Shown piece by piece: positions 1,451-36,631 of a DNA stretch of 45,382 nt. The position numbers and the translations under genes are program-made. How positions within the stretch are numbered: the first letter of the stretch is position 1; each line of letters starts with the position of its first letter. Below the pieces are notes generated by a model. It did no database searches. It saw nothing but the letters and a program-made list of their open reading frames with translations, and was not told the origin of the DNA. The DNA is from Nemertoderma westbladi. Taxonomy: Eukaryota > Animalia > Xenacoelomorpha. The DNA lies in NCBI GenBank assembly GCA_032718475.1, contig JAUCBJ010005517.1, positions 1 to 45,382 on the forward strand. Reading direction: 5' to 3'.

Positions 1451-2154
1451 ATATGTTTGAACTGGTCCTGGTCCATCCCTAACTACCGTCAATGTAACTC
1501 CAGGTTACTTAGTATCGCTCCATTCGCACCTGGTTATATTTGAGATTACGTGACGTGAATTCGACAGAATAAGGGAGATTTATCGTGCCACTTTAAATCA
1601 ATCGTGTACTGATATTTTTTATTTATTTTATTTATAAAGCATTTTCAGAGGTTTTTATTTTTGCAATAATCATATATGCTGTTCGCGTAGTTCATATTCA
1701 TATTGTTTTAGTTATATTTAGTGTAATCATGTAAAATCCCACTGTATGGTTGTATATTTGTATATTATTTATAGTCAGGCCTACTTTATATATAGTGTAT
1801 GTATTGTGCAGGTACGGTACGTACGTACATAAACATCAGTCGTCATGGTTATGGTTGCTACTCAAATGGAATATTCAGGGAATTTCATTTATTCTAGAAA
1901 TGTCAGGGAATTCATTTAAAAATTGACAAATTATGGAAAATCCAGGGCTGTTGATATATACAGGGCGGCATGTGTCATAAGTGAAAATGTGAAATTTTAA
2001 ATCTCACCTCTCTTCGCTCGACATTTTACTTATTCATTGATGTGTTTACCGATATATGTAAAGGACTCAATAATTAATGTAGGCCTATACAGTATGGATA
2101 ATGTAAATTTTTGGAATATAATAAAGGCATGAAAGATGTTAGTTTTAAGATAAC

Positions 2155-3710
2155 CAGTGTCCTTTAAGGTCGGTCTCAAGAAAGTCATGGGCTCTCCACC
2201 AACTTATTATTTCAATGAGCCCGCCAAAGCACAAGATTGTATAGACGATTGCGACTCCGTCTGGTCCTGACGGCGAAAACAATATCCTGCATAGCGGGGG
2301 CGGCTATGTTCAAATTTCAATCTTCTGTGGACTAATGGGAAACCCCAGATGCTGTATAGTGTCTGGTTGGAAAAGAGTTCATTGTACTTGAAACAGTGAA
2401 TCATTCATGCGTATGTGTCATCTAGTGATTTTGTGTTTTCAGCTGTAGGCCCAGCCCGGATTCTCATATAGGAGAACTGGTTCTATTGTTGTTCTAAATA
2501 ATGTAGGCCTATTCTATGTGACTTCCAATTAATTCATGGACGTGATGACATGAATATGAATAACCTATATAATAATGATTTAATTTAATAATTTTGATAA
2601 TTATTTAATTTTGATTTAATAACATGACTTTCGGACCCAGAATTCCAAGTATCACAAGTCATCCACATGCTCAAGCACACCATCCTTTGAACCAATGCTC
2701 ATAATTCAGAAATTTCCCGAGGACTGACGAATTTTGGCTTTCTTTGAGTTAACAAAATTACCGACAATAGAAGCTGTCTGCACTAATGATCTGAGGAGCT
2801 CTCTATAGTTCTATAGTTAAAGGTGTTGGCTTGATTTTCTTGACTTCTGGAGCGAGTAGTAGGATGTGTTACCATCAGACCATATTTATTAAGATGATCT
2901 AAGGATATGGCGCAGAACATAATCCACCTCAAATATGATTATGACTAATAATGGTGCAAGCATGTGACTATGACTCATCATAAAACTTAAAATGGTTCAT
3001 GTGTCACCAGTAGACATTAGATACAGATATTGTCGAACAATCGTATAGTGACTTGATTTCTACAATAATTTCTTCAGCAATGTAATGCTATCCCTGTCAT
3101 TGTTTAGGGGCTTCTCAAATCGGCCTTCCTACCATTGTGGAGGCGATCCTTTAGGTTAAACCTTAACCTTTGTTGTAGGTTGGCTTTTCATTCCCTCCCA
3201 TTCAGCAAGTTGATGAATTTCCATTCCTGGATTACCTGTTGGCATCGGGGGTATTGATGGTGACAACTTCGATAAGCTCGACTGTAGATTATCAGAGTTT
3301 TCCGAGTCTGGGACCTAGATGCAGCCTTAACTGCTGCTGTAGCCACATCCTTGGCCACCTTTCGATCCGGGACTTATTATTTGCCTTAGTGAGATCCTCT
3401 TGGCACTTCCAGTTTTGTGGTTGGTCCAAGGTGCCTTTTTTACTGTTCCGAGGGAGTTTCTGCCGCTGTTGATGGCACTAATAACCCTGTGCTCTGTTGC
3501 CTCAGAGGTAATACGTATGCCATACCATACGTACCCCATACGTATGTTGCTCAGCTATAGCATGGGTACAGGATCTCACACTGGGCTTTTTCAATAGACA
3601 CTAGACAGGTACAATCTAGACGTGGCGTGGCAAATTTATTAGTTCTGCTAGCGCGGGGACTAAGTCTTACCTTAACCACAATAAGGCGATGATCAGTGTA
3701 GATGAGAGTA
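2155..3710 (-). mobile_element. Heavily decayed, internally deleted RTE-clade LINE copy
   Basis: Collinear nucleotide similarity to 16270-18365 (e.g. AAGTCATCCACATGCTCAAGCACACCATCCTTTGA; GGGACCTAGATGCAGC). ORF 2207..2404 is paralogous to ORF 16193..16540. Confidence 0.85.
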
Positions 3711-6070: not shown

Positions 6071-7245
6071 TAAGTTGGAGTTCGTGTAAAAGCAAAAAAT
6101 ATTAGAACTGTATTTTATTCAGAAGGGTTTCACATTTACCGATTAAAGCTTCAAGTTTCGCCACTAAATAATGCCTATTTGGTCCGTATCGGTATTAAAC
6201 AAGTCTAAGGTTCACAAACATTGTGTATGCGAAGTATCGTGAGTATCCACAACAACGTCTTAGTACCGTACGGAATAAGTAAATAAATGGAGATAAAACT
6301 CATGGTGAGGGGTCATCATGACCGTAACACACTGTTGGTTAGGCATCCTGCAATCCGATGCAATCTAAATTCATTCCACTCCAGGGGAAAATCGACGCAA
6401 ATAACAGCTGATTAATCCAAAAAATAAAACTAACCTCTTCTATTGACTGTAAACTGTTATCTTTTCTTGTTTTGGTTAGAATAACATGATATATTAATTC
6501 GCCGAGATGGGATTTGCGTCAAATCCCCCAACCATTGTTTATCGGTTGAACAACTGCATAACTCGAACCATCTTTAACATGCGTAAGGAAATTAATCCCC
6601 CCCCCCCCCCCCCCCCCCCCGGTCTACCTGGTATCCCCTTCTAACACGGAACACAATGCACTACTCATTAGCTCTAATGACTCATTAAAGTCATAATACT
6701 AATTAGTCCAATATTTTACCCTTATATCAATACAGTCTAGATAACATTACTGGTAGGCTTTAGCTACTGTCTGAGAATGACATAATAATATATGTCATTC
6801 TATAGGTCCCTCCAGTTTGGCACGATTGCCACGGAGCCTGTTGTTTAGAAGGTCGTATGCGTTGGATAATTATTATTTCCCCACCCCGTATCAGGTAAAA
6901 GCAGCATTGTCCTGCCGGGTAACGTTTTTTCATGAATGTTCAAGTTGAACTTACGCCACTTGCCCCAGTTTTGTTTCACATAATACACCGGGGTAGTGGC
7001 GATTAATAGCGACCAGGAATACAGCACAGGAAGGTTAACGGTTGGAAAGTCGGGAAAGGCAGTTGGAAAGGCAAAAACATTTCCAGCTATAAACTGAAGT
7101 TATTTATGAAGATAGATACTAATAAATGTATATTTACATGAATAATCAATAAATACAAATAATGTTATTACTGAGTCGGGATGGTTCGTGTCAATATTAT
7201 TATTAAAAATATTTACGTTGAGCAGAAAATACGACAGTTTGAAGT

Positions 7246-8061
7246 TTAGAGCATAAATGGAATGTCATTGTTTTTCTCCCCCAAACCGAAGTAACAGTAA
7301 CCAAACTTTGCTGTGTTCGGAATGTGGTAGGCTGTTAGCCCAGGCCAGTAGAGACTTCGCAAGGTAACCTGATGACCTCTTTCTTCTTGTAATGCCCAAG
7401 ATCCCTTAGGTATATCCTCTTCTATGGGATCCAAGAAGTCGATAGCTGGCTCCAACTTTTCCCGTTCCATTAAACTCTTCTGGGGTAGGTTAACGGCTTC
7501 TCGTAGGTGGAGATATGAACCGAGTTTAACAGCGTCTAATGGCGGCAGACCTTGGAAGTTTACGTTGTTCACAACGACCCCTTTGGCATTCTTGGTGAAG
7601 GCGCCACGAGGGGCTATCGCTCCATCTTGGATAATACCCTCAATAACAGCAGCTAATCGGTCTTCTTCTCTCAGTACGATGGTCTCCTCTGAAGGTATTC
7701 CGTTGGTCTCAACTTGATCGATCTGTTCGAACTCGTACGACGGATCCCCAGAAAATCGACCTTTTACTTTCAAAGACTTCGCTCGAATATCGTCCGTAAC
7801 TTGCGGCATCAGGTTCCAGCTGGCGCAGTCAAGGCTGTAAAAGTTTTTTCTTCCGCTTAGTTGGTCTCTAATAACGCCCTGCGCGATGAAATAATCGTCT
7901 TTAACGCCCATAATTTTGCCCCAGAAATAAACTTGTGTAAATTTATTCTGGCTCCGTAAAATTGGTAGAGAGGTTTGCAGTGCTGTCTTCTGCTCTGGTG
8001 ATAGGCATAGACCAGAACTGGACACGTACGATTCCGTTAAATGTAAATCTTCACCGTCCAT
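7246..8061 (-). CDS. RSPH9: Radial spoke head protein 9 homolog, single exon, 271 aa
   Basis: Full-length intact ORF with family motifs: SSGLCLSPEQKTALQTSL, FWGKIMGVKDDYFIAQG, GRFSGDPSYE, EEDRLAAVI, PRGAF, FLDPIEEDIPKGSW, LRSLYWPG, YFGLGEKNNDIPFML. Confidence 0.97.
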   Translation of the reverse strand: MDGEDLHLTESYVSSSGLCLSPEQKTALQTSLPILRSQNKFTQVYFWGKIMGVKDDYFIAQGVIRDQLSGRKNFYSLDCASWNLMPQVTDDIRAKSLKVKGRFSGDPSYEFEQIDQVETNGIPSEETIVLREEDRLAAVIEGIIQDGAIAPRGAFTKNAKGVVVNNVNFQGLPPLDAVKLGSYLHLREAVNLPQKSLMEREKLEPAIDFLDPIEEDIPKGSWALQEERGHQVTLRSLYWPGLTAYHIPNTAKFGYCYFGLGEKNNDIPFML

Positions 8062-8252
8062 TATTGTTTAATAATGATGTATGATATATAATGTAGAATA
8101 TTTGATGTTATTATTTCACAAAAATCCTATACAGGTTCTGAAATAGTTGCCTTTGTTATTCCCAATCAGTATTTACACTTTATTCTCAGTAACAATCCAC
8201 AATCAACCAACTCGGTAGTTTGTTGTGGGTTGCCGTTCCTAATGTTTATGGC

Positions 8253-8266
8253 GTTGCCAGGACAAC
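8253..8266. promoter_or_regulatory. RFX X-box upstream of RSPH9
   Basis: GTTGCCAGGACAAC closely matches the X-box palindrome GTTGCCATGGCAAC and lies ~190 bp upstream of the ATG of a motile-cilia gene. A forkhead-like TGTTTAT is adjacent at 8243-8249. Confidence 0.7.
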
Positions 8267-9000
8267 GACTGGCTGTTGGATAATTTAATTTGGAAACTAT
8301 TAAACTGTTATATTATCTTGGCCCATGCTATAATGTATAATTTTAATGAAATATACTTCATATCCTATATTTTAATTAAGACTAGCCCTGTATAATTTTT
8401 TTAATCCCTATATAATTTTACATTACTTTTATGCATTTTTTACTCATTTGCCCTGTTTATGTAGGCCTGCGTAACGTATTAAAAACCTTCTATATGACAT
8501 TTACGTACGGAATAATGTGATACAAACCATTTATTTACATGGCTATAAAACCATCCCATTGGCCTCTCACTCAATACTGTATCTTGTAGGGAAATCTCTG
8601 ATAATACAGCATAACACGAGTGGGGCCTCCGTGCAGCAAAAGCTGCATGCCATCTTAGCGAACAATTAAAAAAGTTGTTGTATATACTTGTTAGGCCTAT
8701 TGTAATTAATCTTGGCTAATTCTAATTAATCTAATTATTATGGCTTCCGACACACACCCACACACACCCCCCTAACAGCACACAGACTTTTAGAAAACGG
8801 CCATAGTATAATTATACATTTATTATAGGGAGGGATCTAGGGGTCTTTACCTCGAATGATAAGTTTATTTTACCGAAAATAACTTATCTTTTATTGGCGC
8901 AATTGTAGGACTAATCCCATCACATGCGTACTTTTTAACCGGGTAGTGTACAAATTTAGGAATCGCGTAATTTTTCTTGAAATTAATATCTCATATCTCT

Positions 9001-9050
9001 CCAAACCACGTACGCGTTTCGACCTTACTGGGTCTCATCAGCGTGGTGTC
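9001..9050 (-). ncRNA. Minimal type I hammerhead ribozyme, copy 1
   Basis: Reverse complement reads ACCACG CTGATGA GACC-CAGTAA-GGTC GAAA CGCG TA CGTGGT, giving an intact core, stems I and II, palindromic stem III and a GUA cleavage site. Confidence 0.92.
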
Positions 9051-9110
9051 AGATTCGAACCTTGGACCTCGAGGTGGAAGCCGAGACAACAACCACTAGG
9101 CCACAGGTTC
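9050..9110 (-). promoter_or_regulatory. tRNA-Gly(TCC)-derived Pol III internal promoter head fused to the hammerhead
   Basis: Minus strand: A box TGGCCTAGTGG (9103-9093), anticodon-like arm CTCGG-CTTCCAC-CTCGAG, B box GGTTCGAATC (9061-9052). Confidence 0.75.
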
Positions 9111-9330
9111 TTTAGATATGGAGTATTAATTTCAAAGCCAGCTGCCATTTTAATAGCCCCTGAATTTTATTATTGATAGTAACAATGTGTTGGCAAGTTG
9201 TGTTTTTCGAGGTGTTTGTTATTATACATTTATTATAGGAAGGTATCTAGGGGTCTTTACCTCGAATGATAAGTTTATTTTACCGAAAATAACTTATCTT
9301 TTATTCCCTTTTTAGTCCCAGGTTCGGATC

Positions 9331-9381
9331 CCACACCACGCTGATGAGACCCAGTAAGGTCGAAACGCGTACGTGGTTTGG
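9331..9381 (+). ncRNA. Minimal type I hammerhead ribozyme, copy 2
   Basis: Stem I CCACACCACG (9331-9340) / CGTGGTTTGG (9372-9381); CTGATGA 9341-9347; stem II GACC/GGTC; GAAA 9362-9365; CGCG; predicted cleavage after A9371. B box GGTTCGGATCC lies immediately upstream. Confidence 0.93.
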
Positions 9382-10833
9382 AGAGATATGAGATATTAAT
9401 TTCAAGAAAAATTACGCGATTACTAAATTTGTACACTACCCGGTTAAAAAGTACGCATGTGATGGGATTAGTCCTACAATTGCGCCAATAAAAGATAAGT
9501 TATTTTCGGTAAAATAAACTTATCATTCGAGGTAAAGATCCCTAGATCCCTTCCTATAATAAATGTATAATAACAAACACCTCGATAAACACAGCTTACC
9601 AACACATTGTTACTATCAATAATAGCATAATTATAACATTTCGCTGATGATGGCTCGCAGTTTTCACTCACCCTAAATAACATAACGACCCCCTCTAGCG
9701 ATCACTCCGGGAAAGTGTTAGAGTTACTCATTCAAAAAATCATACAACTTGAAAGTTTGCGATGTTTGATTAAACACATTTAGTGTTCATGTAATGCCCA
9801 GTAATAGAAAAATATGATTTATATGCCAAAATTATCGAGGAAGAGGCTGGTGACACAAAAAACCTGTAAAATATTAATTTTTATAATCAAATTTTTAATA
9901 ATATGAATGTATCTTATATTATACACTGCGTGTAGAAACTGCGTAGACGCTATCATATATAGTAAACTGCGTTTAAAAGTGATCTTATCTCAATGTCTGA
10001 TGTAAATTTATTGATAAAACTATACCGGTTCCTATTACATTTTAGTGAAACTTCAATTGAGAAACTTCCGTTATACAGCTCTTCAGTGTCAAACTCCACC
10101 CACAATAGAAATAAGTACCAAAAAATTCGATAATAAGATTTCTCGCCGTAACGTTCTCGTGCTGGCAACAGCACCGAAAAATACTATTTTGATATACCTG
10201 GTGCAACTCAAATATATTCCATCGAAACCAGAACCCCCAAAAACACTTATTGCGCAAAATTCAGGTTCAAACAATCAATTTATGAATTGACAAATTTCAA
10301 AATATGGTACTTGCACCAAAATTTGGCACCTGCCGAAAAAAAAACAATTTTGAAATATCTAGCTTATTTAATATGAATTCCATCTAATTGCGAACACCTA
10401 AAAATCAGTCTAAATAAAAAATAGAGGCGTTAGTAAGTTGTATGTTTATTGACTTAAATGGTTTTCCCACATGAGTTAATTTATATACACGGCACAAATT
10501 GAACGACAACGGTAATAGACTGTATGACAGTCAACCGCAAAAACATCGAAACATCATTCTAATCCACTGCATTAAAAATACAGAACATCAAACAAATTAT
10601 AACATCAAGTACAGTAGAAGCTATTTTAAGTTTTACGAGAATAGATTTTGAGCATATTATTATTGATAAAGCTACACAAATCATATAAATTATTCTTCAA
10701 TTGAATAAATCAGATAATGTATTCATATCATGAAAATCGATGGGACTACTGTCGCGCACATGCTGCGAGAGCAGGCATTCGAGAAGTACAATATGCTGCT
10801 CAGATTGAACTGAAATTCGGTCGCAAATACAGA

Positions 10834-10939
10834 CCCTGTCTGAGTGTGGGATTCTACTCCAACGGCCCTTTTCTATTTGCTGATTGTGGGACTTTAGTCG
10901 AACCCCGGTGAAGGCTAACCGAGCCGTAGATAGGCAGGG
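10834..10939 (+). other. Predicted multibranch RNA structure of unknown identity
   Basis: CCCTGTCT/AGGCAGGG closing stem (one G-U), GAGT/ACTC hairpin, ACGGCCC/GAGCCGT stem enclosing GAC-TTTA-GTC and GGT-GAAGGCTA-ACC hairpins. It is a GC-rich island in AT-rich DNA. Confidence 0.45.
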
Positions 10940-11140
10940 ATAAAAACTTTCACATTAGAGTAAATTGGGTGCGTTAGAATTCAGGTAAGTTAGAAATTGA
11001 CCGGTAAGTTCGAAATTTCGAGGCTAAATCTGGTTTACCTTTAATGCAATCTATAACAAGTTAATTCTCATACCGGACACTATATATGCAAAATTCTAAA
11101 ACGCAACTAAGTTTACCTACCAGGGTCTCTCTACTAGTGG

Positions 11141-11323
11141 CTAACGACACGGTATCATCCATGAATAAAATAATATGTATGATGCCCAGGAAAATGTTTT
11201 ATAGGCCTTGCGCAACATTGCAACCATTTGGTTAACATAAATACTAAATAACAAGCCACTAGATGGCGCACCTTGTCTGACCAATAGGTTTTTAGGAATA
11301 GTCGTAAAATTTCCGATTCCCAA
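11141..11323 (-). mobile_element. Short non-LTR reverse transcriptase fragment (different family from the RTE copies)
   Basis: VRQGAPSSGLLFSIYVN is the RT QG..SP.LF motif. A shifted frame gives LFMDDT (YADD-like). Confidence 0.7.
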
Positions 11324-11329
11324 CTACTT

Positions 11330-11410
11330 TTGTTTCAGAGTTATAACAAAAAAACCACGTGGGGTCATATTGAACCCCCCCCCCCCCCCCCCCGGGTTTA
11401 ATAGGTTTAA
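11330..11410. mobile_element. Possible terminus of a piggyBac-like MITE
   Basis: GGGGTCATATTGAACCCC, poly-C, then CGGGTTTAATAGGTTTAA, which resembles a ...GGG|TTAA end. No partner terminus found. Confidence 0.3.
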
Positions 11411-11419
11411 AGACGTCAA

Positions 11420-12966
11420 CAAAGGTAATAAATAGCTAGTTGTCTGTCTGTCTTTGTTGATAACTCTTCGATTATCCTTCTGAGCGCCAGAATGTGCCCC
11501 ATGTCCCACCACCTTTACGGAACCCATTTTGGTTCCCATGTAACAGTTTTTCAAAAGGATCCCTGATGCGATTTAATAGAATTCCATTGTATACCTTTGC
11601 AGCAAACGAGATCAGCCAGATTCCACGAAAATTTCCATAACTTGTTACTTTAGGTTGACCTTCTTTGGGACTGGCCTCAACTTATTTATTTTTATTTCTT
11701 GGTTCCAAACACTCACAGTAATTTAAAGACCCCAGGGGGCACGCCATCTACTCCACTGGCACGATTGCTCTTGATGCTCTTTGCTGCAGTCTTGATTTCT
11801 GCTAAGATGATGTCACCAATGTGGGGATATCTGTGAGTAAAGACTCAGATACACGATGTACCTCAAAATTATCAGGGAATGCCATGCTATTAGCCATTGT
11901 TTATAAGCTTCTGAAAGTGGGCCTTCCAACCATTGAGGCGTTAAACTAGAGATTCAGCTTTAACCTTGGTGGTTGGTTGGCTTTTTCTCCCAGTGAGCAG
12001 GTTTATTGATTGCCATGCCTGCTATTATCAGCAGGCAATCAAAATAAGTCTTAACTTGACCACAATAATGGGGTGATCACTGGAGAAGGTTCGAAGCGTA
12101 AAATGCTCTACAGTCTTGTACAGAGCTCCCGTATTTCCTACGAAACAGAATATGGTCTATCTGGGACTTCCAGAGATCGAGATGGAAGCCTGAAGATGGA
12201 CGGAATTTCGGTTAACACTATCGCTATAGACCCAGGGCGATGTAGGTGATTGATGCAGACTTACATTAAAGGAATCCCAGGAAAGTTAAGAATGCATGAT
12301 GATCCACTCCATCAATAGCTGCTTGTACTGAGGATTGTGGTAGACATTTTCTACCTCCTTTACTGGGGCAACACTAGTTGGAGAATAGCACACAATCAGA
12401 ACCACCTTAGGAAGTCACCTTAGCCAGTCATTCAGAACATGAGAAGTGGCAACGGATGATGAGGCTATTTTGTCCAATGCTTCATGTGCAGTAGGATTCA
12501 TCAATAGACCAATTCCACCATTACCACTATCATCTACTGGTGCGAGGGCGAGTCGCCAACCGACCCCCATTTCCTTAATCAGAACCTCATCAATCTGTTC
12601 AGTCCGCATTCGGTGCTCTTGAAAACCCACTTTGCTAGGGGAAAGCTTATCTGCCAGGGCAGTCAGCTCGCCTTGTCGCATTGATGACCTGAGTGTTAGG
12701 GTGTTAACTGACGCTAGTCAAAAGGCAGTCTAGTAACTTGCCTCAGGTTCAGCAATGGCTTGTTTGGTCGGGGTGGAACATGAGAGTAGCCTCCAACTCC
12801 AGAATCCCCCCCCCCCCCCCCCCCTCCTTCTTGGTGATCTAGGGTTTGGGACAGTAAGGTCTTCAGGAAAGGTACTCACAGAATTGTTGGCCGCTCTCTC
12901 TCCAGTAGGGGGTAAGACAGGCAACCGGTCAGGAGATAACTGACGCCTGTGAGTCCAATTGTGTCC
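11420..12966 (-). mobile_element. Decayed, internally deleted RTE-clade LINE copy (5' region, APE endonuclease, start of RT)
   Basis: ORF 12415..12681 (MRQGELTA...GWRLALA...GNGGIGLLM) is nearly identical to 18705..19001. 12840-12966 matches 20809-20936, showing the empty site of the solo LTR. Confidence 0.9.
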
Positions 12967-14294: not shown

Positions 14295-14536
14295 GCAGCA
14301 GCTTGGTCTAGTGGATATATTCCTGGGCTTCAATTTAGGAAGCCCTGGTTCGATCCCAAGATGGGGCAGCATTGTTTGGGCATACTGCTTTAAATGCTGC
14401 AGCCTAGTCCAACTCTTGCTTTCATCATTCACTGGTTGATGAAAGGGAACCGATTGTTTTAAAGAAACGTTTAATATTAAAGTTAGAAAGGATGGAAGGC
14501 AAAGCGCTAACCAGTATTCTTCCATCATCCATCCAT
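14295..14536 (+). mobile_element. tRNA-derived SINE with a probable Nin/Deu-type central domain
   Basis: A box TGGTCTAGTGG (14304-14314), B box GGTTCGATCCC (14347-14357). CCAACTCTTGCTTTCATCATTCACTGGTTGATGAAAGGGAACC resembles the Nin/Deu core as I recall it. Confidence 0.6.
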
Positions 14537-16096: not shown

Positions 16097-16164
16097 CTAG
16101 GTAGGAAAGAAATGAAACATTTGAATACTTTACAACAGTAGGCCTACACTCTCTAGCTTCTAGG

Positions 16165-19100
16165 ATCGGCATGCTGCATTGTAACTGCATTTTTAAGAAT
16201 GCTTTGCCGGTTTGTCGACAAAATTGCGCCGCCACAACATGACATTTACTACATCATCCGCACCTTCAAGGCCAGTGTCCTTTAAGATGCGTCTCAAGAA
16301 AGTCATGGGCTGTCGACCATGCTTATTCACTCCATGAGGCTGCCAAAGCACAAGATTATGCACTGGCTGGTCCTCACGGCGAACGCAATGTCCTGCAAAG
16401 CGGATGCGACTTTGTTCTAGTGTCAAGCTTGGGGGAACCAATGAGACACCTCCAATGTTATATAGTGTCTGGTCGGAGATGTGTACATTGTACTTGACAC
16501 AATGAACCCGGCGCAGCATTCTTGTGAATGTGCCATCCAAAGATTTGGTGTCCTCAGCAGTTAGAGCCCAGCATGGACTCCCATTGAGGAGTACTGGAAG
16601 TACTGCTGCTCTAACTAAATAATTGAACCTTAAGTTTCCGATTAATTCTCTGTGACTTCCAAATCCTGGAAAGCCTATTCAAGGCTGCCCATGCCTTTCC
16701 CTTACGTATTCGAAGGTCCTCACCTGATTTCCGGATCCATGATCCCAGGTATCAGAAGTCATCCACATGCTCGAGCATACCATCCTTTGAGCTTATGATC
16801 ATCCGATCAGAGACTTGCTGAGGACTTTCAAAGTTAACTGTCAAAATTTTGGTCTTTTTGGAGTTAATAAAAAGACCAACACTAGAAGCAGCCTGTTCTA
16901 ATGAGCCGTTGGGCTCCCTCTAGTGATTCTGAGAGTACTCCTAAGTCAAAAGCAAAGTCTAGATCAGTTAAGTATTTGGCAGGATATCCTCTATTTCTGG
17001 AGCCAGTAGGTGGAGTTACCATCACCCCATCATCATTATGATGATCTAAGGACATGCGTAGAACATAGTCAACCACAATTATGAACAAGAATGGCGCAAG
17101 TGTGTCTCCCTGAAGGACTCCCCATAACACTTCTAATGGTTCTGTGTCACTGTCAGCAGTAGACACAAATGTTGTTGAACCATCGTATACTGATCTGATT
17201 GCTGCAATAATTTCATCAGGAATCCCATATAATGAAAGTATGGTGAACACGTGAGCGAGAGACTGAATCAAAGGCCTTGAAGAGGTCAACAAGGATAACA
17301 GCCAGATGCCTATCTTTCTTTTTTGATTACTCTTCAATTATCCTTGGGCTCCATGGTCCCACGACCTTTACGGAACCCATTCTTATTTCCACGGAGCAGT
17401 CTCTCAATGGGATCCCTGATGCGGTTTAATATAATTCTATTGTATAGCTTTGCAGCAAACGAGATCAGTGAGATTCCCCGAAATGAACCCTAGAGTGTTA
17501 GGTTGCCCTTCTTGGGAACTGGCACCAACTTATTTGTTTTCATTTCTTGTGGGACTCTTGTTGTTCGGTACATGTCTACTATGATGGGATAGATGAGCTT
17601 TAAACACTCAGGTATTTTAAAGACCTCAGGGGGGACACAATCTAATCCACTGGGACGATTGGTCTTAATGCTCTTTGCAGCAGCCTTAACTTCTGCGAAG
17701 GAGATATGGCCAATGGAAATATCTGGGAGTACAGACTCAGACACTTTTACTTCTATAAAGTTATCAGACAATACCCTGTCATTATTGAGGAGCTTTTCAA
17801 TGTGGGCCTTCCAACCATTGAGGCGATTGGCTGGTGATTCTGCCTTAACCTTGGTGGTTGGTTGGCCTTTCCATCCAGTAAGCAAGTTGATTGACTTCCA
17901 TGCCTGGGATGATTGCCTGCTGTCGTCGACATCATTGATGGCACCAACCTGTTGGTTTATTAACTCCTGTAGTACTGCCTGTTCAGGGACCTAGATGCAG
18001 CATTAACTGCATTCCTGGCAGCTGTGGTCTGTTTGAGTCGGGACTCTTTCTGTGCCTTATAAAGGTCATTTCGGCACTTCTGAATTTTGTGGTCAGTCCA
18101 GGGGGCCTTTTTCCTGTTTCGAGGGTACATAGGAACTGTTTCTGCAGCTGCTAACTTAACTCTTCTGTGAAGGCAGTATATCCCTCGCAGTGATCTGCCG
18201 CCTCAGAGGCAAGAACTTCATACCTGTTGCTCAGCTGTAGTGTGAAGCTGGATCTCACACTTGGCTGTTGCAACAGAGAGGACTAGTCATGCCGCGGCAA
18301 GGCAGATTTCGTGTTCTGCTAGCACGGAGACTAAGTCTTACCTTTAAGGTGGTGATCACTGGAGAAGGGTCGAAGTGTAAATGCATTATAGTCTTGTATA
18401 GAGCTCCTGTATTTTCTACGAAATAGAATATGGTCTATCTGGGACTTGTGACGACTGGGTCCAATATGAGTCCGTAGCTTTCCAGTTCGCTTCTTGAACT
18501 GGGTTCCAGCTGAAAACAGTCCATTTCCAGAGATGAAAACCTGAAGATGGACGGAATTTCGGTTAACACTATCGCTATAGACCCAGGGCGATGTAGGGGA
18601 GTGATACAGACTTGCATTAAAGTCTCCCAGGAATGTTAAGAATGCATGCTGATCCACTCCAACAGTAGCTGCTTGTAGATTGTGGTAGAAATTTTCCACC
18701 TCCTCTACTGGGGCAACACTAGTTGGAGAACATCCTGAACACCTGAACATGAGAAGTGGCAAGTGATGCGGTTAGAGATTTGGTCTATTTTGTCCAATGC
18801 TGCATGTGCAGTTGGATTCATCAATAGACCAATTCCACCATTGCCACTATCATCTTCTGATGCGAGGGCGAGTCGCCAACCGCCCCCCATGTCCTTAATC
18901 AGAACCTCATCAGTCTGTCCAGTCTGCATTTGGTGCTCTTTAATACCCACTGTGCTAAGAGAAAGCTTATCTGCAAAGGCAGTCAGCTCACCTTGTCGCA
19001 TTGGGGCCCGAGTGTTAGGTTGTTAACTGAGGCTAGTCTAGTGACTTGCCTCAGATTCACCAATTGCTTGGTTGGTCGGGGTTGAACATGAGAGTAGCCT

Positions 19101-21470
19101 CCAACTCCAGAATCCCTCTCCCCGCCCCCCTCACAATCTGGCATCCCTAGTGACACAGTGTAATGGATTTCTCGTGCTTCTTGGCACGATAAGCACCTAA
19201 AACGGCTTTGTATCTCTAAAAGTTCCAAGGGGTGCTATACTTTCCCTTATTGTTTTGGTTCCCGGCTGATATGAAATATTTCCCACAAGAACACGGTCCT
19301 TCAATGACTTGTTATTTACGAACGTCCACAACCCTTTAATATAGTGCAAAAACACAGTGATTTCTGTTCTTCCCAAGATGTATATTGCTCCCTTCTGGCA
19401 TATAAAAATATTGTACTGTAACACCATAGAAAAACCTCTGGGATGAGGAAAAGAGGAGAAGCCGGGTGAGGGATGCTTTGGGTCCGTTAGGATCCAAAGT
19501 ATAGCCTCAAATTAATCAAACAATCCAAAATATACAGAAAAATACAGTGTTTTTAGTCGTTTCGTTATGCTGAAAAATACACTGAGAAAAATATAATCAA
19601 AGTCGTAAAAATAATCTATGGGCAGTGAAAAAGTCGTGGAAACAAAGGTCGTAGAAAATCAGAGTTATGGGAAATCGTAATAAACTTGGTGCAACTTCAC
19701 GCTATTGGAACTTGGTGATAGTGTGCAGAACACCAGTACCGTGTGAGTCCAAAACAGGGGTGGGACCGATTGGACGCAAACGGTTAGCTGTTACTTTGCC
19801 CTCAAAACTATACCGTCGATCCCGGCGAGCCTGGGATGAACTGTATAGAGTGCACAAGCACTACTACCGTAACTGACAGAGTCGAAGGGAAACTGCTACT
19901 TTGCCCCCAAAACTAAATAGTCGGTCCTGAGACGAACTAAGTAGCCAGTGGACAGAGTGCGCGAGCGCTCTGGGGCTAGTTAGCCAGCGAAACTCAGTCC
20001 TAGGCGGAATCGTCTTACCTTCCCAGCAATCGCGAAACCGCTAAGGCCGGCCTGGGAACAAACCTCCGAGCACCTCTACCTCGGAGCAGAGCTCACTTTA
20101 AGGCTAGTCAGCCAAAACTCAGTCCTTGGCGGAACCGTCTTGCCTTTCCAGCAACCACGAACCCGCTAAGACCGGCCTGGGAACAAAGATGCCCTCTACC
20201 TTGGAGAAGAGCCTAGTTTAGCTGACGAGGTGGCCAACTATAAGGCTGGTTTTTGGGACTGACTTTTCCATCCAAATGTGGCCCCTTTTAAACCTGGTGT
20301 GGGGTCAATATGAAGTTGACCTCTAATTATCACCTAAACACAGTTTGTCTTTCCTGTGCAGAGAATTTATGTTCAGCCCATGTAAATATAATTAATGCGT
20401 GGTTGTTTGACTGACCCATAACCGATTATTGATGAACGGCAATAGAGTTTAATGGTTATCAATTATTCATTTGTTAATAACTAGGTGAGAGTAATAGGTG
20501 GGGGAGGTTGGCATACTAAGGGGCCAATGAGAGAAAGGAGGGAGGTTGTGTAGCGATCTCCTTCATTGGATTTCAGTGATTTGTAGGGGTGTAACCGGCA
20601 ATATTGGTTGGAGTTTGTGGGTGAGGCCGGCTAAGGATGTCTGGGATGGAAATATGTCGTAATATTGGATATAATCAGAGATAAATATTACGGTGAGAAA
20701 GGGGGAAAGGGAGTAATTGTGTAGTGATTATTGTATTTTTAAATCACAGTCACGACGGAGTGTATTTTTTATGTTTGCCTACGGAGGCGCGAAAAATCGA
20801 TTACACAAAGGGTTTGGGCAAGAAAGATCATCAGGAAAGGGACTCACAGAATTGTTGGCCACTCTCTCTCTCCAGTAGGGGGTGAGACAGGCAGCCGGTC
20901 AGGAGATAACTGACGCCTGTGAGGCCAATTGTGTCCGGTAATTCCACTGGCCTCTAGTGGTCGGACCTCCGCATTGCTAATGTAATCCATAGTTGGGGTT
21001 GGGGGTGCTTTTTTGCCGAGTCAGCTCTCGGGGCAAATACCACACCCTGGTTTGCCATTCCATAGGGTGGGTGTCGCAGTGGAGTCAGATATTAGACCCA
21101 TCACCCATAACTACTCTGACGCACATGACCCACCATTGGCTGTGTAGCTCATCCGCTGGGCCATGCCCTGTACCCCTGCTGCCAGGTACAGGTCGCAGTG
21201 AAGTGCACTCAGAGTGGACATGAGAACACTCTACTCCTGACCAGCCATTGGTAGATCCCCATCTGCCTAGCCAGGCCATATACCCCTGCAGCCAAGTATA
21301 TGGGTCCTTAATCCAGGACCAAGGGTGTCCTTATCCAAGAATGAAGGGGGTCCTAGTTACAGGACCATAATTGCCCTAGTAAGAGGGTAGGTCTATGCAG
21401 CCACAGGTGGCACCTCCTTTATGCTGCATGGAGGTGGCAAGTTTTCTTGATCAACGACCTGACCTGATAC
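16165..21470 (-). mobile_element. Near full-length, frameshifted RTE-clade LINE (APE + RT) in GPCR intron 1, split by a solo LTR at 19159-20805
   Basis: APE motifs LGDFNA, SQIDHILF, SSDH. RT motifs KLVPVPKKGNL, GVLQGDTLAPFLFIIVVDYVLR, TDLDFA(D)DL. C-terminal RIRFAGHCVRRE. GC-rich structured 5' region at 20806-21470. Several stops and frameshifts. Confidence 0.92.
19159..20805. mobile_element. Solo LTR (1647 bp) inserted into the RTE LINE
   Basis: TGTAATGGATTT...AAATCGATTACA (TG...CA, 11/12 inverted match). 5-bp TSD CACAG/CAAAG (1 mismatch). The uninterrupted paralogue at 12780-12966 lacks it. Internal ~125-bp tandem duplication at 19975-20215. Confidence 0.8.
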
Positions 21471-23199: not shown

Positions 23200-25297
23200 A
23201 CACAATTGAAAGCTTCCAAGACAGAGTTTTATAGACGCCGGACGGCCTTTTGATAAACCCTTGCGTAGTAAGAAGCGGCGATATCGATGGGAAGTTCTAA
23301 GTACTATAGAGGAACTCAACACTGGTGACCCTAATCAATTTTGGGAGCACCTAAGACGCTTGGGGCGAATAAATCGAATTAAATTCCTTCGGAAATTTTA
23401 CTAGAAGATGGTACATTTTCGATTCGAATGATCCAACTGTTGTGAATGAAAACTGGCGGCGAGATTGGGATTTTCTGTCCCCGAGACTCGCGAGTATTTT
23501 GAGCGAGTCGCAGATCAAAAAGAGGAATTGGAGTGGGTAATGTAATGAACTCTCCATACTTTGAGCCGGATAGTAGTCTACAGTAAATGTTTCATTTTCT
23601 CGGGGCAAGGTAGAATTTGCAATCAGTAAACTGAAAGTTAAAAAGGCGGTGGGGGTTGATTCTATTCCGAATGAGGTGTTACAGCATACTTCACTGTTAG
23701 ATTGTATTGTTCTCTTAGTTAACAAAATATTTCAACCAAGTATAGTTCCCACAATCTGGAAACAGGCACTTATTAAGCCTATTCCTAAAGGTGTAATGAA
23801 AGATTTAAGGTTTCCCTCAAACTATCGCAGTATTAGTTTGTTGTCTTGTTTCAGTAAACATTTTACATCTACTGTATATTAAACATTCGGCTGCTCAAAT
23901 ATTGTGAGGAAAATCATTTTTTAGCCGAAGAACAAATTGGTTTCCGTGTTGGTAGATCATGTGAAGACCATATTTTCGTTATTCATTCCATTATTAAACA
24001 TCATATCGAAAGGAAAGAATCAACTTCTGTAGCTTTTATAGATTTTTCAAAAGCTTTTGATTGATTGTGTTGACCGAAATCTGTTATTACATGTATATAG
24101 GTTGTTACTGTGTCTATAGGTATAGGTGGAAACATATACCGGTGCATTACATCTCTATTTTTGGGCACAGTATCTTAATTATAAATAATTCTAGAACGGC
24201 GTGGTGTTCTACAGTAGCTGGTGTCAGACAGGGTGACATGACAAAATGTCACCAGTTCTGTTAAATATATTTATTAACCCTTTAATTGAAGAAATTGAAT
24301 CTTCCGGTATTGGTGTTTGATTAGGAGATACTGTACTTTAGTGTCAATATTAACATGCAGAATTATGTAGCTTTATTAGCTTCCAATGAAAATGATTAGC
24401 AATTACAGTTGGATATTTTGTCAGGCTGGACTTCAAAATGGGAAATGACGGTAAATTAAACGCAATAATTTTTATTGTCCGTTTAAATCACTCAAAATCC
24501 AACGTACAGTAGTACATTTTCGGGCAGCTTATAAACCGGTCCCTAGTTATAATTTTTCGGTGTCGAACGGTGTACAGTACTGAAATTAGCCAAAGAATAT
24601 ATAAGTACTTCGGGTTTGTTTCAGGATCAACACTTAACGTATAGGCCTACTAAGGGTATAAATGTGCTGTCTGAGTCAGCAAAGCGGGCATTTGGTGCAA
24701 TTGTATCCAAGTCATATAAAGTACTGTAGGAGGCTTCCTGTTTGACACATATACTACATTGTTTCGCTCATGTGTTGCTTACATTCTATATTACTCATCT
24801 AGTGTTGGTGTATGGGGTAGCACTACCGGCAAGGAGGTAGATAAAGTCTAGATACGGATTATGCGCAGCTTTTTGGGTTGGGGCTATTCTCAACATCGTC
24901 GATGTTTAGCTCTAGGGAGCCGCTGGAACCGTATTAGATAACAAAAATTAATTTTAAGAAACGTTTTTCATTTGCTAGACCTGGGTGGAGTTTATTGTAA
25001 TAGAGAATTATGTAATATGGATTTACTTAATAAAAGGTTCAGTGAAAATTTATCAGATCTGTGGTGTGCAAAGCTCCCGGGTAAGCTAAACTGCGCGTAC
25101 ATACAGACACTTTAAATCGCAATTTGGTACTGAAAATTACGTCAAATCAAGTAAAATATAGCGTTCTGAACGGTCAGTTATTGCACTGTTTGGTGTGGGG
25201 TTTTGGCACGGGCAATTGAACTAGGTCGAACGAAATTAGGAGGAACGTCTATATGTTTATTATGTAATTCCGGAGTTATTGAAGACGAGCTTCATTG
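23200..25297 (+). mobile_element. Decayed L2/Crack/Daphne-like LINE ORF2
   Basis: Across shifting frames: KAVGVDSIPNEVL, WKQALIKPIPKG, NYRSISLLSC, EEQIGFRVGRSCEDHIF, AFIDFSKAFD, GVRQGD, and a C-terminal IELGR...CLLCNSGVIEDELH zinc-finger-like motif. Confidence 0.88.
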
Positions 25298-25555
25298 TAA
25301 CCACCACCACCAGGACTGGTATGCTGCATTGCAGCTGCATTTTTAAGAATGCTGTGCCGGCTTGTCGACAAAATTGCGCCGCCACAACTCCCTATCACCC
25401 ATGACATTTTCTAGACAATCCGCATCTTCAAGGCCAGTGTCTTTTAAGATGCGTCTCAAGAATGTAATGTGCTGTCCACCATGCTTATTCACTCCATATG
25501 AGGCTGCCAAAAGGCAAAAGATTATGTAGTGGCTGGTCCTCACGGTGAAAGCAAT
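25298..25555 (-). mobile_element. 5'-truncated RTE LINE 3' end with (TGG)n tail
   Basis: Near-identical to 16170-16390 (LRRILKDTGLE...WRRNFVDKPA.HS*). CCACCACCACCA at 25301-25312 is the short tandem-repeat tail typical of RTE. Confidence 0.88.
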
Positions 25556-26165
25556 GACGAGACAGTTAATATTTTGCGGGGATAGGCCTACATTTGTTAG
25601 AAAAATACATTCTGCGTCATCAGTCAAGGCCGCTTTCCAAAAAGAGTTTTCTTGATAAACCTGAAACTACTATAGGTCGGCGGACAATGGAAATGATTAC
25701 CACCACCATTCCCGATTCTCCAAGAGGAGAACTAAATAATTAAGATCGTTTTGTTTGCGGCGTTTCATACTCAGATATACAGCAGCACTTTTTAAGGAAA
25801 AAGTAACCATCTGAATCTGTTCATAATAATAAAATAAAAGTTTGACAACAATAATCGTTCTCGCGTTCTATTTAAACTACCAAGACTTTTTTAATCTATG
25901 TATCACGATAAAAGTAAAACCCTGCAAGTATTTCTCTAGCTCGTGGTCAATCTATCGTAACTGTTGTTTGTGCATACATAATAGCCTATACGAATCTACA
26001 GTTTTGGCAAGATTAATTTCGAGGCTTAATAAAGCAGATAACCTTGTAAATCAATACTACGCATACACACATACATACAGTACGGTACTGTGTACATACA
26101 CCAAAGCCTGCGGCTATTATAAAGTTACTAGAAACTGTTTATTCCTAAGAGTCGTATCATTGGTA

Positions 26166-29600: not shown

Positions 29601-29820
29601 CTAACACGAACTTCGTCTTACTAACACGAAGTTCGTGTTAGTAACACGAAGTTCGTGTTAGTAACACGAAGTTCGTGTTAGTAACACGAAGTTCGTGTTA
29701 GTAACACGAAGTTCGTGTTAGTAAGACGAAGTTCGTGTTAGTAAGACGAACTTCGTCTTACTAACACGAAGTTCGTGTTACTAAGACGAACTTCGTCTTA
29801 CTAACACGAAGTTCGTGTTA
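29601..29820. repeat. 11 tandem copies of a 20-bp palindromic unit (STAASACGAASTTCGTSTTA)
   Basis: Directly visible with no spacers. About 3.7 more copies at 30547-30621. Confidence 0.97.
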
Positions 29821-30024
29821 GGGAGGAGGGAAATTCAAATTACAAGGGTGGTATATTGCAATCCAATCATGTAGGTAGTACATGTACTGTATAAGGACTG
29901 TCTTATAGTTCATTATCTTACAATACTGATAGTATTGGTAATTGTGGTACCGGTTTCCTTCTCAGTTTCTTTATTAATTTTATTAGGTTCCAATAGGTCG
30001 TAGGTCATTATTTTGTCGCAAATA

Positions 30025-30387
30025 ATGGCTGTAATGGAACGCAACGAAGTCATCAAAACGTACTTCGATTTATCATATACTTACAAGGAAATTAGTTTTG
30101 TGTTGGAGAAGAATCATAATATCCTTATAGGAGTTCGCCAAATTAAACGCGTTATTAATGCTATGGGGCTTTCGCGTCGTGTATATGACGACTTAGACGA
30201 TGTTTATTCATTTATTCAACATGAATTGAATGGGTCTGGAAGACTTTTGGGCTATCGTATGATGCATGCAAAGTGTAGGCTACATGGTCTCAGGGTTTCG
30301 CAAGGAAGACGTGCGAGTGATACTCACGCATTTTATTTATTAATTCTTCTCGAATACCTCTATTCTTCATGTATTCAAACATGGTAG
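30025..30387 (+). pseudogene. N-terminal fragment of an IS3EU-type transposase (Clr5-like HTH region), no catalytic core
   Basis: IKTYFDLSYTYKEI..L...H.I.I..RQIKR....GL.RR and GSGRLLGYRMMH......GLRV match the N-terminus of this family. Similarity is lost after ~30320. Confidence 0.75.
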
Positions 30388-30879
30388 GGTTTGCCGTACC
30401 GGTACCATCCATTATCGTTACTGATAAATAACAGTCCTTAGTACATTGGCCCTAGTCAGATAGTGCAGTAGACCAGTGATGCAGTAGTGGTACCTATATG
30501 ATTGAAATATAATACCATACCCTAGAAATTTGAATTTCCCTCCTCCCTAACACGAAGTTCGTGTTAGTAAGACGAAGTTCGTGTTAGTAAGACGAAGTTC
30601 GTGTTAGTAAGACGAAGTTCGCTATCAGCTGATTAGTCATTATTGCTATTGGTCAGTCAGTTTATTTATTTACATATTGCTGTATTGTATAAGCTATATT
30701 TATATTATATTATACTGTATTACATGTATTTGGATAGAGACACCGCTGTCATAGAAGCGTATAAATAAAACTGCACATAATAAAACAGGATAAAGTTGAA
30801 CAATGAATAAAACAAAACGACTTATACTATGGCACTATTCAGCTATTGATAATGAAACAATTTATTAATGACACACAGG

Positions 30880-31720: not shown

Positions 31721-32901
31721 AAGCGATATCTTTCGGATATCATTTCGGATACAACAATATCTTTATTAAAATCTAGCTACAGAACCTAGTATTTTCATTT
31801 TTTCAATCCCAAAAAAAACATTTTTTTGTGTTAAATTTTCAAACAGTGTTTTTTTATGTTTAATTGTTGTCCTATTTTTTGTAGTTAATTTACTTTGCAT
31901 GTTTTATTTCAGCAGTAATATTTTACCTATGCGACATACCTACGGTACCAAATTTATGTTACGTATAAGGCTATGGTTGTATCCTATAGAGTATTGTAAA
32001 ATTGTCCCTTATTAATATGTTTGCCTTTAGTACAGAGTACACTAAGTTGTTGAAGCCCTTGAACCTAAGTATGCTTTGCCGGTTTTTAATTTAATTTTAC
32101 TGTAATTTTATTTTTTTTAGTTTAACATGCAAGAAATAATAATTATTAAGATCATATAAAGTTTAATATATTTATTCAAATATCCAAATAATTCCCCATA
32201 CTTTTATTTTGGTATCTTATTATTACTTGCTATGGAACATAAGTTTGTCGAATTCGAATACAATATCATGCAGTATTTAAATGAATACATGTCTCCTGTA
32301 GGTAACATCAACTCAAGACAGGGGAGGGGGGTGGGGTTGGGGATATGTTTCATTACATACATATTTCATTCATTACATATGTACAGTATACTATTTGCAG
32401 CTGCAGTATTATAGATAACAGAATAAACTACAGGTAACTGTACACGTACAGTGCATAGGCAGGGCATGGGGCATGGGCCTAGGCAGTAGGTTAAAATCTG
32501 TTTGCATAACGATCATCTGATCATGTTACGATCGTTTTACAGTTTTACTCATTCTACGCTGACATGGCTGCATGGCTATGCCTTGCAGCCTTGATCTGCT
32601 GATTGCCTTATGCCATTTACGCCCCGCGCCATACCAGCCATACACTACGTGTACTGTACAGTCTGACAGTGTACATATACTGATATATACAGATATACAG
32701 CACATATACGGCTGAACGGTTAGACAGAAGCCTACCTTCTGACCTTTAGTCTTTCTGTCTTTAGAACACGCAAACACAGTAGGCCTACAAGTACAGCAGT
32801 TAAACGCTTAGGCCTAGCCCCAGAGCCCTGTCTGCCTGTAGCCCTAACACCTGAACACTGTAGTAACTGTAACAACATGCCCATTTGCATTCAAATTCAA
32901 C

Positions 32902-34482
32902 ATGATATTTGTTATCTTATTATCAATGTTTGCTGGCGGTGTTCTTGTGTTGCTACTTCAAGGTTTCTTATACCTAAAGTGGATTGAATTAACCGAGAAA
33001 GATGCCAATGTGCCTCTGGAGCAGGAATTCACCCCGGTGACCATATCCCAAGAACTAATAGATTCCGTCAATGAGGACAAATCGGAGACATGCGATTGGC
33101 TGAACCTGTTAGTATCTTTCGTTTACGACGAAATGAAGGACTCCTTGAGGGTGAGACAGTGGGTGAGCAGACGTCTAGACCTGGAAATCAAACAATTCCT
33201 AACGAAGAAGGGCGCCAGCCATTTGATTGAACAGATCCTGGTTCAGCAGTTCAACGTTGGAGAGTATTTGCCTGTATTCCACGACCTCAAGGTAATTAAG
33301 GTTGGCCCACAACTGGAACGGAACTCTGTCCCCAGCGAGGTGGAGTTATCCGGGTTCGTGGTTTACACCGGGGGATTCAACGTATCACTACGAGTCGACA
33401 TGGTTCTCGGTAAGACGGCCTACTTGTACGTCAAGTTAGCCCACTTGAAGGGCCGATGTAAGCTGCGGATGTCCAGACATCCCTTCACCTACTGGTCATT
33501 CTCCTTCCTGGAGGAACCCGTCATGGACATTGATGTACAGTCCAGCTTTCAGGGAAAAGGTTTGTCCAGGATAACCTCCCTGATTGTAAACCAGTTCCGA
33601 CGGACTGTAAAACGTAAACATACGTCGCCAAACTTTAAGATCCGCTTTAAACCGTTCTTCCCTCCGGATCCTCGTCCAGTTTTGGATCCGAATCCGATGG
33701 AGCGGATCTCCGGACGACCGCTCGGCTACGGCCACTGGATCGTCTCGTTGGTCTCGTGTTCCCGCGTTCCCGTGGAGCCCTCCGACCAGCTGCTCTACTG
33801 CGCCTTCTACACCGACTCCGAGGCGGACGAGGACCAACGGGGTTCTTCGATCAAGTGGAAGTCCTTGACCGCCGCGGTTTTCCGCCCGTCGGATCGACCG
33901 CTGGGTATCGGATTCTCCACGGAGGTCGTCAACCTGAGGGGCGACCGACGCACGCGATTGGTCATCTCCTACATCTCGGACGACGGGCCGGCGGCCGGGG
34001 CCAACCTCCGGAAGGGGGACGTTGTCACCGCCATCGACGAGGTCGATGTGTGGACCCCTCGGCAAGCGGCAACCGCGATGGCGGCTTCACAGCGGAACCG
34101 CATCGTGTTCGCGTTGCTCCGCGCGCGGATGCGGGTTAAACCGAACCGGTCGGAGACCGGGGGCCGGTCGGAAGGACGGCGTATGTCGCGGTTGGCGGTC
34201 CCGGAGCCGGAGCCGGAGTCGGATGGGTCCGAGATACTCTCCGAGGATTTTATCAACATCACGGTTCAGATGCAGGACCTAGCCGAGGGGCGTGTGGAGG
34301 ACGTAGATGAGCTGTCTGAAGCTGCTGTGATGGACGTGGAGTTTCCTCGTGGAATGGGGAGGGAGGATGAGGTCCCTGTGGGAGTAGGGAGGGAAGGGGA
34401 GCATCTGGAAGGTGGTAGGAAGAGCGAAGAACTCCCTGGAGTTGATGGGAGAAACCAGAATTCACCAGGAAGTGAGCAACAG
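32902..34482 (+). CDS. PDZD8: PDZ domain-containing protein 8, exon 1 (TM anchor, SMP lipid-transfer domain, split C2 N-part, PDZ)
   Basis: N-terminal TM helix; SMP (ETCDWLN...PFTYWSFSFLEEP...KRKHTSPNFKIRFKPFF); PDZ (PLGIGF...GPAAGANLRKGDVVTAID). Donor CAG|GTATGT, phase 0, after 527 codons. Confidence 0.95.
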
Positions 34483-34729
34483 GTATGTATCTAACCTATA
34501 TAAAAAGTACCTGTATAAAAACTAACCTATACGTGTGAGTGTAACTGTCCAGTGTCCAAAAAATGATACCAGTTAAAGTGATCTTTTAAAATTCTGCTTA
34601 AATAATAATTATTGGGGCCTTTATATATAATATAACTTGTGGGATCCGCTAATATTTAAAGATATCCGAACGACAATGAATGATAATTAATTAGCTTTAC
34701 GACGCCACATTTGTTTACTAATACATACA

Positions 34730-35662: not shown

Positions 35663-36631
35663 ACAATGTTTCTAGATAGTGTCCCTGGGCTCCATCGCGC
35701 TTTATAGTTGATGAAACATGATCGAATAATACAGTACCGGTATTGTATTTTAATTTTACTAAGTATCTGGACTATATAGTATCTGGACAGTATATGGACT
35801 ATATTTAGCACGATATATTAATTTGTATTTTATTTTGTATCTTTATATACCCAATATCTAAACATATGTGATAATATTATTTCATAATGGTGTTACATTT
35901 TCACTAGGTATATCTTCGGCCTGCCCCTTCTATATCCGAGTTGGCCATTGACTTATAGAATGAGCAATTTTTATTTATTTTTATAATTTATTATTGAAAA
36001 TTTTTCAATAAACATTAAACAATAACAATAGTATGTCTGTTGGGCCGTCTGTATGTTAATACCATACTGTACTGGTACTGCTAGTTTGTGAATTAAGGTT
36101 GGTGGAAAAATGTTTTTCTTCCAATCGTTGGGTAAATGCACCTTTCTCAAAAGGTTCGTTTAGGTAATCAATTTTTTATAGTTAAAATATTATTAGGCCT
36201 ACTTAGATGAAATTTAGGGACTCGTGTCTTTATGGTAAAGAAAAGACCAACTCTTTATATTTCTATTGTGCTGATGGTGATATTATGGTCATGCGTACCG
36301 AAATCATCTCTTTAGTGTAGTGGGTCTAGCTTCAAGGTGGTCTAGCTAGACTCTAGATACTTTCAAAACGAGAATAAAAAGAGATTATGTATCGAGATAT
36401 TCTACAAGCAGGTTGGAATTACCTACTCAGCATCCCCAGTAATTCGATCATTGCGATTCAAATGACATTCTTGTTATTCTATTATTCTTGATCCCGTATG
36501 TTCATTGGTAGTATTATTTAGCATTCCTCTCGACTCGTCGAAACTTCTTAAAGATCCTTCTGCGATTCCCGTTATTATATTTACTTTATTGGAGTTTAGT
36601 TGAGTGACTGTTACACACTTTACTGTTACAG

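Follow-up and report, generated by a model that had tools for sequence, protein, structure and literature searches.

The window analysed here, a stretch of 45,382 nucleotides from Nemertoderma westbladi, contains a short insertion in which hammerhead ribozymes adjoin a tRNA-like sequence, and it raises the question of what this element is, how it could be transcribed and which enzyme moved it. The last two points are open steps for animal retrozymes as a group: regarding transcription, a review describes these elements as seemingly without a promoter (PMC7761336, available part), and as for mobilisation, Penelope has been proposed from co-occurrence and similarity, as given in those parts of the literature at hand. 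The preferred reading, with a probability of about 0.72, sees here a non-coding repeat of 410 nt, present in many copies and inserted back to back; it is likely a non-LTR retrozyme with its own promoter, which a reverse transcriptase/endonuclease of the Penelope type likely moved in trans. The overall design is not new, as it is known from blood flukes; nonetheless, one 410-nt unit combines a candidate internal promoter with a full Penelope insertion signature, and both open steps are therefore testable on one small construct.

Layout of the insertion, its target and its family

The insert (8817-9621; Table 1) consists of two arms placed head to head between the copies of a 14-bp, AT-rich target-site duplication (TSD), which are identical at 13 of 14 positions, a match equalled in 0.08% of random 40-bp stretches of the window. 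The long arm runs through an 85-bp end repeat, the tail, the spacer, the tRNA-like head, the hammerhead, the body and the end repeat again; the two copies of this direct repeat are 83/85 identical at a spacing of 410, which bears out the circularly permuted 410-bp period proposed in the initial annotation, and the 57-bp spacer that it placed here is present (9167-9111). The tail terminates the plus arm (9572-9624) and is absent from the end of the minus arm; the 3' ends of the two arms lie 53 nt apart within the unit, on either side of this A/C-rich segment. The inverted arms match over 257 nt (8811-9067/9315-9571) with 7 differences (97% alike), and a second inverted match pairs 9168-9305 with 9487-9624. 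The right junction is spanned by one contig of run X3, a different sample (9573-10074, 2 differences). The unit has 39% GC and no Pfam match in its reading frames, and only 1.2 units, with one ribozyme per strand, occur in the window. The earlier description as a non-coding, tRNA-headed, permuted element is upheld, and the 14-bp TSD, the one-sided tail, the head-to-head arms and a family-wide closed period are added to it.

Table 1. Features of the insertion (positions in the window; strand of each feature).
Feature	Position	Strand	Description
Left TSD copy	8803..8816	+	14 bp; last 6 nt common with the end of the minus arm
Right TSD copy	9622..9635	+	First 3 nt common with the end of the plus arm
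Long arm	8811..9305	-	495 nt, 1.2 monomers
Upstream copy of the 85-bp end repeat	9221..9305	-	Recurs at 8811-8895; sets the 410-bp period
Tail	9168..9220	-	53 nt, A/C-rich (A or C at 39/53)
Spacer	9111..9167	-	57 nt
tRNA-Gly(TCC)-like head	9041..9110	-	A box 9103-9093; anticodon-like loop 9080-9074; B box 9061-9051
Hammerhead, canonical type I by helix sizes	9005..9047	-	Putative cut after 9011
Body	8811..9004	-	Hairpin near 8888-8858 with the single T4 run (8879-8876) found in the sense monomer
Filler	9306..9314	.	9 nt at the head-to-head junction of the arms
Short arm	9315..9624	+	310 nt, comprising mutated B box, hammerhead, body and tail; the 5' truncation falls in the T arm
Second hammerhead	9335..9377	+	Same as the first; cleavage predicted after A9371

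As for the target, the insertion lies in a sequence that is itself a repeat, other copies of which connect position 8816 to the right flank. Contigs that leave after 8816 into right-flank-like sequence number 21, 23 and 15 in runs X1, X2 and X3, and those that join 8816 to 9648 number 2, 1 and 3, with short sides of 22-26 letters; the contigs joining at 8816 are empty paralogous sites rather than an allele. The target repeat family, at 8614-8668 and at 8779-8816 plus 9636-9680, has raised depth and shared loose ends; the two copies are inverted, about 110 bp apart, and a 10-bp AT palindrome lies at the insertion point.

Regarding abundance, 2232 (X1), 3947 (X2) and 1708 (X3) contigs lie on the stretch. 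Relative to the median of the flanks, the depth summed across head and spacer is raised about 3000-8000 times, a value that is not a copy number, and it amounts to 0.66-0.77 of that of the body; head and spacer are therefore regular parts of the family, and the possibility entertained at first, of other copies without the head or the 410-bp period, is not borne out. The sole contig of a fourth run (X4) is 441 nt long over 8818-9257, that is, one period plus an overlap of 30 bases, and would correspond to a closed loop of about 411 nt as it appears with 31-letter words; such a loop can arise whether the source is an RNA circle or DNA units in tandem. Because this run bears the label of another organism and its RNA nature is a guess, the contig was used for the period only.

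The letters carried by the insertion also bear on its template. The letter common to all three copies of the 85-bp repeat (8848/9258/9534) is carried by 5-24% of the depth, and that common to both arms (9202/9590) by at most 2.5%; sharing of such rare letters by end repeats and arms indicates one template lineage for both arms. Divergence among the three end-repeat copies does not exceed that between the arms, which is equally compatible with a circle and with a homogeneous array. At least 12 contigs of run X1 exit into unrelated flanks at 9169, a preferred end among the matches listed, from X1 alone.

Ribozyme, tRNA-like head and fold of the unit

Both hammerheads match the Rfam model Hammerhead_1 with 26 bits (E 0.0033 in a 4.5-kb search), below its gathering score of 34, and a scan of the whole window at gathering level gave no hammerhead match; the two intact cores claimed earlier (9001-9050 minus, 9331-9381 plus) are thus recovered at a sub-gathering score. 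Every core base is present in both, and only these two of the six core-motif matches in the window form hammerhead helices, as judged by eye and, within 7000-11500, with Rfam. Helix I has 6 bp and helix II 4 bp, with pair probabilities of 0.75-1.0; in the minus hammerhead they are formed by 9047-9042/9010-9005 and 9034-9031/9024-9021, helix III being weak and palindromic with 1-2 bp, and a 5-bp distal extension of helix I (9053-9049/9004-9000) recruits the end of the B box.

These sizes, together with the weak palindromic helix III, are those of the canonical retrozyme type and replace the label "minimal" given at first: according to the available part of PMC4209133, the minimal Penelope hammerhead has a long helix II (7-8 bp), a short helix I and an extra base before helix II, and the hammerheads of metazoan pLTRs are mostly minimal or atypical. 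By its helix sizes, the ribozyme would fit the canonical, dimer-dependent metazoan type I (PMC4209133, PMC7229834, accessible portions). An axolotl ribozyme with a similar helix III is cut at 6% as a monomer and far better as a dimer (PMC7229834), and only one of nine Xenopus retrozyme dimers was cleaved in vitro (bioRxiv 10.64898/2026.07.22.740005), both values coming from the portions of these sources at hand.

As for the head, it is considered tRNA-like because it has A and B boxes and because it aligns in register with a phage tRNA-Gly-TCC, anticodon loop included, at 37/47 columns. The boxes were called with a strict and a loose pattern for Pol III promoters, and the strict pattern was drawn up with the site already seen; it has one match in the window (9103, minus; pair 9103-9051) and none in 200 shuffles, and the loose pattern has two window matches and 2/200 shuffles. 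Regarding the alignment, none of 5000 shuffles was as good and the head was the best of 3626 stretches of the window, the reference tRNA having itself been selected as the best match, with E 2. Phage records matching the head are mostly from Pseudomonas phage (16/21, E 2), and all 15 among the matches listed fall on tRNA-Gly. The initial annotation had proposed a comparison with tRNA models and had fused each hammerhead to the B box of a head; neither ARAGORN nor Rfam, even at E 10, recognises a tRNA in the head. The A and B boxes of the minus arm are intact, and in the plus arm the B box is mutated and the A box is missing. The predicted fold of the head is a rod, with the 5' strand pairing with the T arm, and not a cloverleaf.

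The ribozyme base C3 corresponds to tRNA position 72. Scored with 24 distinct viral tRNA-Gly(TCC), the segment 66-72 is among the top 2.6% of the 7-mers of the window, and scored with 23 other tRNAs it is among the top 10%, with two of its matching bases dictated by the ribozyme core; a tRNA homology extending past the T arm may be suggested by these ranks, but only that. The 3' strand of helix I, tried as the 5' strand of the tRNA, reached only the top 21% and was discarded.

The element is likely read by Pol III. The majority letter of the family at 9051 restores the B box. As evidence against, Pol III could terminate ahead of the tail, at the one T4 run that the sense monomer contains. Depletion of T runs as a sign of Pol III was not found against shuffles (P 0.53 and 0.51), and 19% of 132 GC-matched stretches of the window have as few.

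As regards the RNA, a 22-bp stem pairs spacer positions 9135-9114 with 8998-8977, just past the ribozyme, and in the predicted cleaved monomer it would join both ends. With the family-majority letter at 9051, 9063 or 9113, a Watson-Crick pair replaces a wobble or a mismatch, and the one at 9088 removes a wobble from the predicted rod, so that three of the four letters tested improve pairing. The fold of the whole monomer is moderately better than that of shuffles (z -2.5 to -2.9), and a stable fold or stem-loop in the tail is not supported (z 0.37 and 0.77).

Proposed life cycle and its alternatives

In the life cycle proposed for the retrozyme, Pol III would start at the head of a unit within a tandem array and pass the single T4 run into the next unit; then, with helix III formed between the palindromes of two neighbouring hammerheads, cleavage would set free a 410-nt monomer carrying the promoter at the 3' end. 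The 22-bp outer stem and helix I would keep the ends of this monomer together for a ligase of the RtcB type, and RtcB circularises retrozyme monomers in vitro, according to a source available in part; the lone hammerhead of the circle would cut poorly, and the circle would persist. A Penelope-type protein would nick both strands of the AT-rich target 14 nt apart and prime on each strand, at two internal sites of the RNA 53 nt apart, to give one cDNA of 310 nt and another of 495 nt, longer than one unit, the two being joined with the 9-nt filler. Because one arm exceeds a unit, extends beyond the putative Pol III start into upstream sequence and runs across an uncut ribozyme, a circular or multimeric template is needed, with the circle slightly favoured over an uncleaved multimer. 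The present copy is probably a dead end, since it has one ribozyme per strand and private changes in both B boxes.

Mobilisation by a Penelope-type enzyme is likely because of the head-to-head arms, the partial tandem, the one-sided tail and the 14-bp TSD: Penelope insertions have a partial tandem, an inverted truncated copy, a one-sided tail and a TSD (PMC3846280, PMC8557442, available parts), and the Penelope link of the initial annotation gains support from this match. The dependence of animal retrozymes on Penelope has already been proposed, as the accessible literature has it. With AT-rich DNA as target, the purified Penelope protein of the anole makes nicks in both strands and extends each of them, initiating internally at two sites that flank the tail (PMC11167929); in vitro it initiated without homology (PMC11167929), whereas the arm ends overlap the TSD by 6 nt and 3 nt, which could be chance in AT-rich sequence. 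A Penelope ORF (telomerase-like RT plus GIY-YIG) was not found among the 120 frames of the window compared with Pfam, which gave LINE-type remnants only.

A more far-reaching version is less likely than not, namely a self-promoting retrozyme of independent origin whose RNA circle, made by Pol III, is copied by a Penelope enzyme that rolls round it and primes on both target strands. Here the hammerhead would have been joined, in register, to a tRNA-Gly at its 3' end, the 3' acceptor strand becoming helix I and the B box doubling as the distal helix. If true, the element and Sm-alpha would together represent a class that recurs, namely SINEs driven by Penelope and replicated through circles.

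There is only a small chance that the unit is instead the pLTR of an autonomous Penelope element with a tRNA-type promoter, and the insertion two of its 5'-truncated ends. The geometry of the insertion is indeed that of Penelope ends, and a branch bearing an ORF may exist beyond the loose contig ends listed; however, the arm upstream of the head runs at the 410 period into its own tail and not into an ORF, the frames of the element match no Pfam family, the dominant path closes on itself, as in the X4 contig, and the canonical ribozyme differs from those of most metazoan pLTRs.

Smaller again is the chance that a satellite spread at the DNA level, with promoter and ribozyme as passengers and the inverted pair as a repair product or the insertion of an extrachromosomal circle. 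In its favour, unequal crossover can expand tandem retrozyme arrays (from a partly available source), the filler at the inner junction resembles end-joining, and the case for the element has been built from DNA sequence; the 14-bp TSD with empty paralogous sites and the recurrent 3' end with unrelated flanks fit target-primed insertion better, and the family letters that preserve the pairing of RNA helices fit selection at the RNA level.

A tRNA SINE driven by a LINE, with a captured hammerhead and a 5' inversion by twin priming, is very improbable: the window has LINE remnants with RT and APE-type domains, and twin priming of LINEs can yield a TSD with an inverted arm, to which those seen here could be attributed, but neither end of the insertion has a poly(A) or simple-repeat tail, the ends of the LINEs of the window are unmatched by the element, both arms span the same part of the unit while one exceeds its length, and the arm sequence upstream of the Pol III start would not be available from a linear SINE transcript.

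Relation to known elements and surroundings of the insertion

The retrozyme reading places the element closest in design to the SINE-like hammerhead repeats Sm-alpha and Sj-alpha of Schistosoma, which in the available parts of their descriptions have A and B boxes and a hammerhead in tandem units, and in which cleavage leaves the promoter 3'-terminal on the monomer (PMC6765202, PMC2576457); Pol III is part of the Sm-alpha design. Like them, it has a tRNA-like A/B-box head followed by a canonical hammerhead and is very abundant, its units may stand in tandem (1.2 units in this copy), and its promoter would likewise become 3'-terminal on cleavage. The head of Sm-alpha derives from tRNA-Gln(TTG) (PMC2770079, available part), while the present one is Gly(TCC)-like, a difference of description and not of alignment; in addition, the Penelope-type insertion signature found here is not reported for Sm-alpha in the accessible parts of PMC6765202, PMC2576457 and PMC2770079. 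In a weak RSPH9 tree, built from this one gene with FastTree only, host and trematodes do not cluster. Because the tRNA differs and the host stands apart from trematodes in this weak tree, the element is not Sm-alpha proper, and it is probably of independent origin; since the head tRNA is not that of Sm-alpha, the sequence suggests that the fusion of tRNA and hammerhead has arisen more than once. As to the undescribed family that the initial annotation considered possible, the design is already known from Sm-alpha and Sj-alpha. In the parts of the literature on tRNA or Pol III with hammerheads or retrozymes that were available, no tRNA-headed hammerhead was found outside schistosomes; subscription papers, preprint supplements and Repbase/Dfam may list some.

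As for metazoan non-LTR retrozymes, the element shares with them a repeat of 150-450 bp, a type I hammerhead, no ORF and a GC content below 50% (PMC7229834; bioRxiv 10.64898/2026.07.22.740005), as well as a TSD longer than 4 bp, a self-paired monomer and many copies with no LTR, following the portions at hand of these descriptions; it thus has the testable features of the group, a full dimer not being seen. It differs from the retrozymes of the above-mentioned review, as far as this is available, by its A and B boxes. Circles have been shown for the retrozymes of coral, mussel and axolotl, according to partly available sources, and are predicted for this element. The same preprint, in its available part, defines active copies by two consecutive ribozyme units, and the present copy does not have them.

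With Adineta Pen2a and anole Poseidon PAc the element shares a partial tandem plus an inverted 5'-truncated copy, an optional tail at one end, an AT-rich target, a TSD near 10 bp and two internal ends (PMC3846280, available part; PMC11167929). Unlike Penelope-like elements, it has no ORF, its tail is of 53 nt instead of 30-40, its hammerhead is canonical and not minimal, and its boxes are of the tRNA type instead of a TATA/Inr-like promoter; the tail of the anole element is a stem-loop, whereas here it is A/C-rich and unfolded.

A pattern of B box plus hammerhead found 46 loci in metagenome contigs, none of which resembles the element by blastn: four of them form 6-bp/4-bp helices without an A box, and two have an A box without hammerhead helices. 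The exact core pattern occurred in no viral contig. The metagenome loci L009, L011, L018 and L043 (match at 1501 or 210), unrelated to the element by blastn, have in common a type I hammerhead that is well formed, with helix III longer and the A box missing.

Regarding the surroundings, an intronless RSPH9 frame lies at 7249-8061 (minus strand) and forms a long branch; its identity to named animals reaches 57-58% at most, and its place beside another protein may be a long-branch artefact (FastTree). The insertion is about 740 bp upstream of the RSPH9 start, its long arm in the same sense as this gene, and read-through across the element would yield a 257-bp hairpin RNA. A second tRNA-like pair of A and B boxes at 14300-14370 (plus strand) lacks a downstream hammerhead and probably heads a further SINE. 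Several LINE copies in decay, which retain fragments of the RT and APE types, occur at 2154-3702, 11407-12822, 16162-19130, 23354-24061 and 25312-25666. Arrays of a 20-bp near-palindromic unit at 29601-29821 (11 copies) and 30547-30621 (3.7 copies) adjoin an ORF with a weak HTH_21 match (30004-30384). Finally, two very long, GC-rich open frames at 32848-34491 and 36608-38245 (plus strand) have MMM1/SMP, PDZ and C1 domains and belong to a gene that we take to be PDZD8-like; their length suggests that the genome is intron-poor.
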